In this document: positions 34,638-35,359 of the stretch, one piece after another
Layout of the letters: each line of letters starts with the position of its first letter
How positions within the stretch are numbered: the stretch's first letter is position 1
Source: Escherichia coli
GTDB lineage: Bacteria; Pseudomonadota; Gammaproteobacteria; Enterobacterales; Enterobacteriaceae
Direction: 5' to 3' (one strand)
DNA: 35,359 nucleotides
Assembly: GCF_003334305.1 (NCBI RefSeq)
Contig: NZ_QOWS01000034.1
The notes under the pieces: generated by a model
The model's database searches: none
Told to the model about the DNA's origin: nothing
The model's input: the letters and a program-made list of their open reading frames with translations, nothing else
Made by a program: the position numbers and the translations under genes

Positions 34638-35359
34638 ATGGGCGGAAAACCGGCGGCGCGGCAGGGTGATATGACCCGCAAGGGACTGGATATTGTGCAG
34701 GGTTCAGCGGGGGTGCTGATAGGTGCGCCGACGGGAGTGGCCTGTTCGGTATGTCCGGGAGGGATTACCTATGCTAACCCGGTGAACCCGCTGCTGGGTG
34801 CGAAGGTGCTGCCGGGCGAGACGGACCTTGCGCTGCCCGGCCCGCTGCCGTTTATTCTTTCCCGCGCCTACAGCAGCTACCGGACCAGAACACCCGCGCC
34901 GGTGGGGGTGTTTGGTCCCGGCTGGAAAGCGCCCTTCGATATCCGCTTACAGATACGCGATGAAGGCCTGATACTCAACGACAACGGCGGCAGGAGCATT
35001 CACTTTGAGCCGCTGTTTCCCGGCGAGATAAGCTACAGCCGCAGCGAGTCACTCTGGCTGGCGCGGGGCGGAGTAGCGGCGCAGCACAGTTCGCAGCCGC
35101 TAAGCGCGCTCTGGCAGGTGCTGCCGGAAGATGTTCGCCTGAGTCCGCATGTGTACCTGGCGACAAACAGCCTTCAGGGGCCGTGGTGGATACTCAGCTG
35201 GCCGGAGCGGGTGCCGGGGGCGGACGAGGTGCTGCCGCCTCCGCCGCCCGCATACCGGGTGCTGACGGGGGTGGTGGACGGCTTCGGGCGGACGCTGACT
35301 TTCCACCGGGCAGCTAAGGGTGACGTGGCGGGCGCGGTGACGGGGGTGACGGACGGCGC
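34638..35359 (+). CDS. Rhs-family polymorphic toxin, N-terminal PAAR-like region (partial; continues beyond the window)
   Basis: Starts MGGKPAARQGDMTRKGLDIVQGSAGVLIGAPTGVACSVCPGG, closely matching the conserved N-terminus of E. coli Rhs core proteins as recalled. Begins 75 bp after vgrG. Open to the end of the window. Confidence 0.85.
   Translation, partial: MGGKPAARQGDMTRKGLDIVQGSAGVLIGAPTGVACSVCPGGITYANPVNPLLGAKVLPGETDLALPGPLPFILSRAYSSYRTRTPAPVGVFGPGWKAPFDIRLQIRDEGLILNDNGGRSIHFEPLFPGEISYSRSESLWLARGGVAAQHSSQPLSALWQVLPEDVRLSPHVYLATNSLQGPWWILSWPERVPGADEVLPPPPPAYRVLTGVVDGFGRTLTFHRAAKGDVAGAVTGVTDG

Follow-up and report, generated by a model that had tools for sequence, protein, structure and literature searches.

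What should be made of an rhs toxin gene that follows vgrG directly, with no DUF1795 (Eag) chaperone gene between the two, and how much can be said of its toxin when the sequence stops before the toxin is reached? Both questions arise at the 3′ end of a 35,359-nucleotide stretch of Escherichia coli DNA (the whole of which is referred to below as ‘the window’), where an original prediction, made from the sequence alone, had placed a PAAR-like/Rhs polymorphic toxin encoded straight after vgrG and unaccompanied by a chaperone. We find that the observation is real, that its interpretation is essentially right, and that the locus is an ordinary and already known one. In our judgement it is very likely that the window closes, at its 3′ end, with the first part of the Rhs effector gene belonging to the E. 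coli T6SS-2 island (the island that runs from aspV/yafT to yafV), and that this Rhs belongs to a short-N-terminus, Tse5-like class; the features concerned are collected in Table 1.

Table 1. Coordinates of features in the window that bear on the rhs gene and its setting
Feature	Position	Strand	Remarks
End of 5S rRNA gene	1-70		Annotation of E. coli A7
Complete type VI secretion island	9678-34562		Annotation of E. coli A7; followed by the rhs start
hcp (TssD)	31693-32211	+	First gene of the hcp-vgrG-rhs operon; TIGR03344, E 1.7e-61; annotated Hcp in E. coli A7
vgrG (TssI)	32421-34562	+	713 aa; TIGR03361, E 5.6e-188 over residues 7-517
vgrG-rhs spacer	34563-34637	+	75 nt; holds the rhs ribosome-binding site
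rhs, 5′ end	34638-35359	+	722 nt; the first 240 of some 1410 codons; frame still open where the window ends
Single PAAR-like repeat (GKPAARQGD...GSAGVLIG)	34638-34724	+	Residues 1-29; presumed VgrG-docking element
Linker	34725-34778	+	Residues 30-47; its Tse5 counterpart threads into the shell
DUF6531 (Pfam PF20148), N-terminal plug of the Rhs cage	34776-35006	+	Residues 47-123; E 4.8e-19
Stretch with 11 substitutions against E. coli A7	35072-35316	+	Inside rhs

The vgrG-rhs junction and its island

That an Rhs polymorphic-toxin gene stands immediately behind vgrG is borne out by profile searches, in which residues 1-240 of the ORF match positions 1-240 of the 1261 in the NCBIfam model RHS_core (NF041261, E 1.5e-148) alongside a DUF6531 match; by this measure the rhs identity of the ORF at 34638-35359 is far above chance, and the score falls under the full-length cut-off solely because the window end cuts the gene, of which some 17% (with a GC content of 66.5%) lies inside. 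The gap of 75 bp between the two genes is likewise as had been claimed, since vgrG ends with a TGA stop codon at 34562 and the rhs start codon, an ATG, stands at 34638, with AGAAGGAA lying 7 nt upstream of it. This spacer is identical in all eight of the related loci in which it was checked and contains no convincing terminator or promoter (its stems are of 5 bp only, at the frequency found in shuffles), and scans for repeats, promoters and terminators around the junction and the rhs start gave nothing above chance. We infer that vgrG and rhs are co-transcribed. Minus-strand ORFs of 40-84 aa that overlap the rhs start are, as judged by eye, chance frames. The VgrG itself has a C-terminal extension past its gp27/gp5 core; Pfam Phage_GPD, Phage_base_V and Gp5_trimer_C are found on a protein identical to it.

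The proline-rich LPPPPPAY, to which attention had been drawn as part of the N-terminal region, is indeed present (residues 199-206, nt 35232-35255) and reads LPPEPPAY in the nearest genome (P202 to E); it is a polymorphic position in the early part of the cage, without evident meaning. Further upstream, after hcp and before vgrG, a strong terminator-like hairpin is found at 32220-32251 on the plus strand, with a 14-bp stem containing eight G-C pairs and a T-run; going by the title of a 2026 paper (PMC13141884), the hcp3-vgrG3 intergenic region reportedly influences T6SS expression in EHEC.

The wider setting is that of a T6SS-2 island. The window differs from E. coli A7 (NZ_CP028767.1) at 12 positions in 35359 bases, and the annotation of A7 gives, ahead of the island, two tRNA-Asp genes (the tRNAs were confirmed, with a tRNA-Asp at 8349-8425) and then dkgB to yafT. 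In keeping with the island as described in PMC7216683, the core tss genes at aspV/yafT follow the T6SS-2 order, hcp occurs twice and an hcp-vgrG-rhs operon runs divergently, and the T6SS genes are identical to the intact set of A7 save for one synonymous change in vgrG. Decay of the island is seen in close relatives, affecting tssF in UTAK-18, tssC in 600468, and vgrG and rhs in A28; the tss genes of the window match those of the intact A7. A junction-spanning query (window 33900-35359) was covered to at least 80% in 2825 of 5426 complete E. coli genomes by megablast, a count in which pieces may be joined across gaps, the 40 matches listed being single pieces. The vgrG-rhs arrangement is common in E. 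coli and has already been described, and the locus is a standard T6SS-2 effector module.

Three further genes or gene pairs of the island, all on the minus strand, may be recorded here. Between tssB and tssC (30237-30461) lies a 74-aa ORF, hypothetical in all relatives, with a weak match to positions 43-82 of the TssC model TIGR03355 (E 5e-4). At the far end of the island (9678-11081), a YkfM-like protein of 159 aa and a hypothetical protein of 304 aa, neither of which belongs to an NCBIfam or Pfam family, adjoin the second hcp (11125-11607), a position that would fit an as yet unrecognised pair of effector and immunity genes or of accessory genes. Lastly, a 450-aa ‘VasL domain-containing’ protein (11631-12983) resembles TssA in its N-terminal region (TIGR03362, E 1.1e-23, below cut-off), and is separate from the bona fide tssA at 16537-17952.

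The probable contig end and the gene beyond it

Both ends of the window are multi-copy repeats, namely 5S rRNA on the left and the rhs core on the right. A 797-nt query made up of the spacer and the rhs start occurs in 3775 genomes, with a median of 3 places in each and a maximum of 8, and an exact-protein look-up of the VgrG returns only A7-type genomes together with several draft contigs of 20-50 kb, among them contigs of about 35 kb that end inside rhs. A sister draft contig (35186 bp) stops 752 nt into rhs, at the very start of a 99-nt stretch that is repeated exactly in a second rhs copy. The window is very probably a whole short-read draft contig broken in the repetitive rhs core, and the tip is absent for technical reasons; with 240 of about 1410 codons seen and the frame still open at the last base, the toxin tip lies outside the window, as had been anticipated.

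The last part of the window departs from its closest relative. Against A7 there is one mismatch in the first 35071 bases (synonymous, in vgrG, at 32975), compared with 11 in the last 288, which puts a breakpoint, whether of recombination or of assembly, within the part of rhs that spans 34985 to 35071. The rhs allele of the UTAK-18 class has a single mismatch to the window in 722 nt, at 34984, and 69 records are at least 99% identical to the 797-nt query, none of them exactly and the best with 1 mismatch in 797 nt. Relative to the near-clonal A7, the source rhs is either a mosaic, recombinant from about codon 145, which is to be expected of a ‘rearrangement hot spot’, or an assembler join of paralogues, the two explaining the data equally well; in either case, what follows rhs in A7 cannot be carried over to the source as it stands. 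As the origin of the tail, an exchange with the second rhs copy carried by A7, DETEC-E601 and MIN10 was considered and rejected, as those copies are 93.6-95.6% identical to it and differ by indels.

Were the last 288 bases joined by the assembler to another rhs paralogue at the repeat boundary, the allele mosaic would be an artefact, and this is the alternative to our overall reading that survives best. In its favour, the window opens within 5S rRNA and closes within the rhs core, in the manner of draft contigs, its sister breaks off at the 99-nt repeat, and the mismatches to A7 crowd into the last 288 bases. Nevertheless, the tail corresponds to the allele found at the same locus in the UTAK-18 class, is matched at 99% or better by the 69 records, and leaves the reading frame undisturbed, and a real recombinant accounts for the data just as well; on balance we think an artefactual join unlikely.

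For the gene beyond the window end we turned to relatives. Past the window, the original prediction had expected a core-to-tip demarcation motif, a variable toxin domain with a small immunity ORF behind it, and perhaps orphan cassettes, and nine related loci were inspected for these (A7, H15, DETEC-E601, A28, UTAK-18, 600468, LH09-a, 47-1826 and MIN10). The motif PxxxxDPxGL, a variable tip of ~150 aa and a small downstream ORF were found, with orphan cassettes and a second rhs in three of the loci (A7, DETEC-E601 and MIN10). The first rhs in these relatives encodes 1408-1412 aa, its tip making up 149-153 aa and PxxxxDPxGL falling near residue 1250; this motif, the YD-repeat cage and a C-terminal aspartyl-protease plug occur in all 8 of the full-length relatives translated, and the A7 protein matches Pfam RHS_repeat, TEN_YD-shell and RHS.

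Whether the source gene is alive is a separate matter. It could be a pseudogene or a truncated remnant, in which case the locus would deliver no toxin, and there are precedents for this: A28, although 99.9% identical over 25 kb, has both rhs and vgrG frameshifted, second rhs copies are frameshifted in A7 and DETEC-E601, and elsewhere in the island UTAK-18 has a tssF frameshift and 600468 a tssC split by an IS3 insertion. Given the frameshifts in A28, the source rhs may indeed be dead. Yet no defect interrupts the 240 codons that the window contains, the T6SS genes around them are those of the intact A7 apart from the one synonymous change, and among the 9 related loci 8 have an intact first rhs; we consider a dead gene improbable, its intactness beyond the window being presumed from the relatives.

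The tips and immunity genes of the relatives fall into distinct types. In type a (A7, H15, DETEC-E601 and A28, the last with rhs and vgrG frameshifted), a YkuD (L,D-transpeptidase)-like tip (Pfam, E 3.4e-5) is paired with a 130-aa immunity ORF bearing a lipoprotein-type signal, LVIGC, which suggests that the A7 Rhs tip is a cell-wall-targeting one that acts in the periplasm. Type b (UTAK-18, 600468, LH09-a and 47-1826) combines a DUF6973 tip (E 2.2e-12) with immunity of the YdcD family (NF050020, E 4.3e-64), and type c (MIN10) has a tip with no Pfam match and, as its immunity gene, a Sel1-repeat pseudogene. The rhs 5′ allele of the window is shared by five genomes, four of them of type b and the fifth being MIN10, which shows that another tip can go with this allele, and our best guess, by extension from these relatives, is that the source tip is DUF6973 with YdcD immunity. 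Pfam gave nothing significant on the MIN10-type tip, a PDB sequence search with the YkuD-like tip of A7 found no relative, NCBIfam returned nothing for the A7 130-aa immunity ORF, 150-aa ORF and DUF3969 ORF, and a search of the literature for Rhs fused to Tlde1/YkuD-type domains found no such fusion. We also note, in the A7 tip (A7 segment coordinates 6811-7642), the pattern HGGG...GCTR, with the 130-aa ORF and its lipoprotein signal coming next.

GC content in the relatives drops from 63-66% in the cores to 40-44% in the tips and 27-33% in the immunity genes, which is a classic Rhs-element signature. In A7, DETEC-E601 and MIN10, the first rhs is followed by an ISAs1 pseudogene, a 150-aa ORF (a toxin-tip fragment, as far as can be told by eye), a DUF3969 ORF and a second rhs; in A7 and DETEC-E601 this second copy has a frameshift, and ydcD comes after it; more ISAs1 pseudogenes stand ahead of yafV in those two genomes, the stretch of MIN10 that was examined ending inside the second rhs. 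This layout of tandem rhs, ISAs1 pseudogene and tip fragment looks like the outcome of successive displacement of older rhs modules.

The short N-terminus and the chaperone

The PAAR-like N-terminus that had been described stands in part: one repeat of about 29 residues is present, and a full PAAR domain, with a significant profile match and three repeats forming a cone, is not. Pfam PAAR_motif (PF05488) scores E 0.16 on Rhs residues 2-29, and residues 1-29 align with the last repeat of the solved PAAR proteins 9rce_c (E 0.02) and 4jiv_D (E 1.2), as well as with the last PAAR repeat of RhsF from E. coli EDL933 (pairwise E 4e-5). The motif P[AVSG]A[RK]xGD occurs in this Rhs and nowhere else in all six frames of the window, and where a zinc-binding DxxxH element would be expected the protein reads D11-M-T-R-K15, with lysine instead of histidine. 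These statistics weakly favour calling residues 1-29 PAAR-like, which is fair as a label and is used in the literature; a single PAAR repeat cannot build the three-fold PAAR cone.

The closest solved homologue is Tse5 of Pseudomonas aeruginosa (PDB 8cp6, E 8.9e-122). Its chain 8cp6_B begins PVNPMLG, aligned to P48 of the window Rhs, and the DUF6531 part of the window protein aligns with residues 1-73 of that shell chain. Tse5 is cut at K47/P48, and its N-terminal fragment, Tse5-NT (residues 1-47), has only a PAAR-like element, which is needed for secretion, and no membrane module; its residues 30-47 thread into the cage and are held by the DUF6531 plug, residues 1-29 being unresolved in the structure (PMC10684867). 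By analogy, an N-terminal cleavage site at N47/P48 is predicted for the window Rhs. It is also conceivable, and in our estimation very unlikely, that either the source rhs carries an undescribed tip/immunity pair or docking on VgrG by a single repeat differs from that of a three-repeat cone; alternative forms of docking may involve several Rhs per spike, or help from the C-terminal extension of VgrG.

Such an architecture bears directly on the chaperone. The claim that no DUF1795 gene is present held up throughout the window: no DUF1795/DcrB-like gene is among the named genes of the near-identical A7 region, Pfam gives nothing for the two family-less proteins (9678-10157 and 10167-11081, both on the minus strand), and a tblastn search of the window with the EagR/DcrB-related protein of EDL933 reached a best E of 4.5. 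Eag/DUF1795 chaperones are found together with effectors bearing both a prePAAR motif (AARxxDxxxH) and transmembrane helices near the N-terminus, and it is to these helices that they bind (PMC7773334). The corresponding residues of the window Rhs are AARQGDMTRK, with lysine for histidine, and no transmembrane helix is found in the part of the protein within the window, the top 19-residue Kyte-Doolittle mean being 1.44, with no stretch at 1.6.

A control is available within the species. The vgrG1 island of EDL933 has a DcrB-related (DUF1795) gene between vgrG1 and rhsF, and RhsF carries AARLGDEIQH at residue 54 along with three PAAR motifs, reaches a hydropathy of 2.13 across residues 64-105 or so, and does not come to its plug until residue 394. 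In EDL933, eagR/DUF1795 lies solely beside the divergent rhsF, and EagR-linked rhs genes form a separate clade (PMC7216683). The DUF1795 gene is missing from the window locus because this Rhs has no transmembrane helices and no full prePAAR for Eag to bind; its absence is the rule for the short-N-terminus Rhs class, and is expected rather than anomalous.

That the missing chaperone might instead be a real gap, filled in trans by an Eag/DUF1795 protein or other adaptor from another vgrG island, we hold to be highly improbable: E. coli genomes can hold a DcrB-related/DUF1795 gene in another vgrG island, and a lone PAAR repeat does seem too small to cap a spike, but the window Rhs has neither of the features that mark the effectors bound by Eag (PMC7773334), Tse5 has the same layout and is secreted by means of an N-terminal fragment with a PAAR-like domain only (PMC10684867), and the clade of EagR-linked rhs genes is a distinct one (PMC7216683). 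The lesson is that a missing DUF1795 gene beside rhs should be judged against the N-terminal architecture of the Rhs (prePAAR and transmembrane helices), and not taken as an anomaly.

A proposed model for the locus and its relation to known systems

Bringing these observations together, we propose that rhs would be co-transcribed with hcp and vgrG, and that the PAAR-like repeat, which occupies the first ~29 of 47 N-terminal residues, would dock the toxin on the VgrG encoded just upstream. The DUF6531 plug, and after it the YD-repeat cage, would then enclose the variable C-terminal toxin, to be released by autoproteolysis at PxxxxDPxGL; the tip and its immunity gene would both lie beyond the window. 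With no helices and no complete prePAAR, we suggest, the protein would have nothing for an Eag/DUF1795 chaperone to bind, so that none would be encoded. All of this matters little past correct annotation, and the competitors killed are set by a tip outside the window. It does touch upon a mechanistic question common to Tse5 and the Rhs proteins of E. coli at large, namely by what means a PAAR-like peptide of a single repeat could hold a cage of 150 kDa on VgrG.

The ‘vgrG operon’ of T6SS-2 in EHEC O157:H7 strain EDL933 consists of hcp (z0266), vgrG3 (z0267), a PAAR-Rhs gene (z0268) and its immunity gene (z0269), with an orphan RhsH (z0272) downstream (PMC7216683). The window locus is of the same island type, with the same gene order and the same vgrG-rhs adjacency without DUF1795; a variable tip, a small immunity ORF and orphan rhs fragments downstream are shared as well, as seen for window-type loci in the relatives, and MIN10, which has the same rhs 5′ allele as the window, carries a Sel1-type immunity gene as described for EDL933 (PMC7216683). 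By comparison with EDL933, at least three types of tip and immunity gene occur at the T6SS-2 rhs among the sampled relatives of the window.

The canonical Rhs elements of E. coli (RhsA-E of K-12) consist of a GC-rich core, an AT-rich tip and an immunity gene, with H-rpt/ISAs1 elements. Their conserved N-terminus and core are shared by the window Rhs, and the relatives show the contrast in GC, the ISAs1 pseudogenes and the YdcD-family immunity; unlike those elements, the window rhs sits in an intact T6SS island beside its own vgrG. To our knowledge, K-12 is without the T6SS-2 island.

With the Eag-dependent, prePAAR-containing Rhs (Serratia Rhs1 and Rhs2, Salmonella Rhs1-SciW, P. protegens RhsA and EDL933 RhsF), the window Rhs has in common the Rhs cage, a docking element of PAAR type, its association with vgrG, and a C-terminal toxin that is polymorphic and comes with immunity. 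Members of that group have AARxxDxxxH and at least one transmembrane region (PMC7773334), along with a split full PAAR, an N-terminal region of about 300-400 residues and a DUF1795 gene between vgrG and rhs, whereas the window Rhs has none of these.

The closest parallel is with Tse5. The two proteins share a 47-residue PAAR-like N-terminal part, a proline as the first residue of the shell, a DUF6531 plug at about residues 48-124, the lack of a transmembrane region, and an adjoining cognate vgrG; tse5 lies immediately next to vgrG1c, and no Eag gene is known to intervene. They differ in that residue 47 is K in Tse5 and N in the window protein, and the tips of Tse5 and the E. coli Rhs are unrelated, Tse5-CT being a pore former. 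Judged by its layout, the window Rhs takes its place in the Tse5-type, short-N-terminus class of Rhs effectors.
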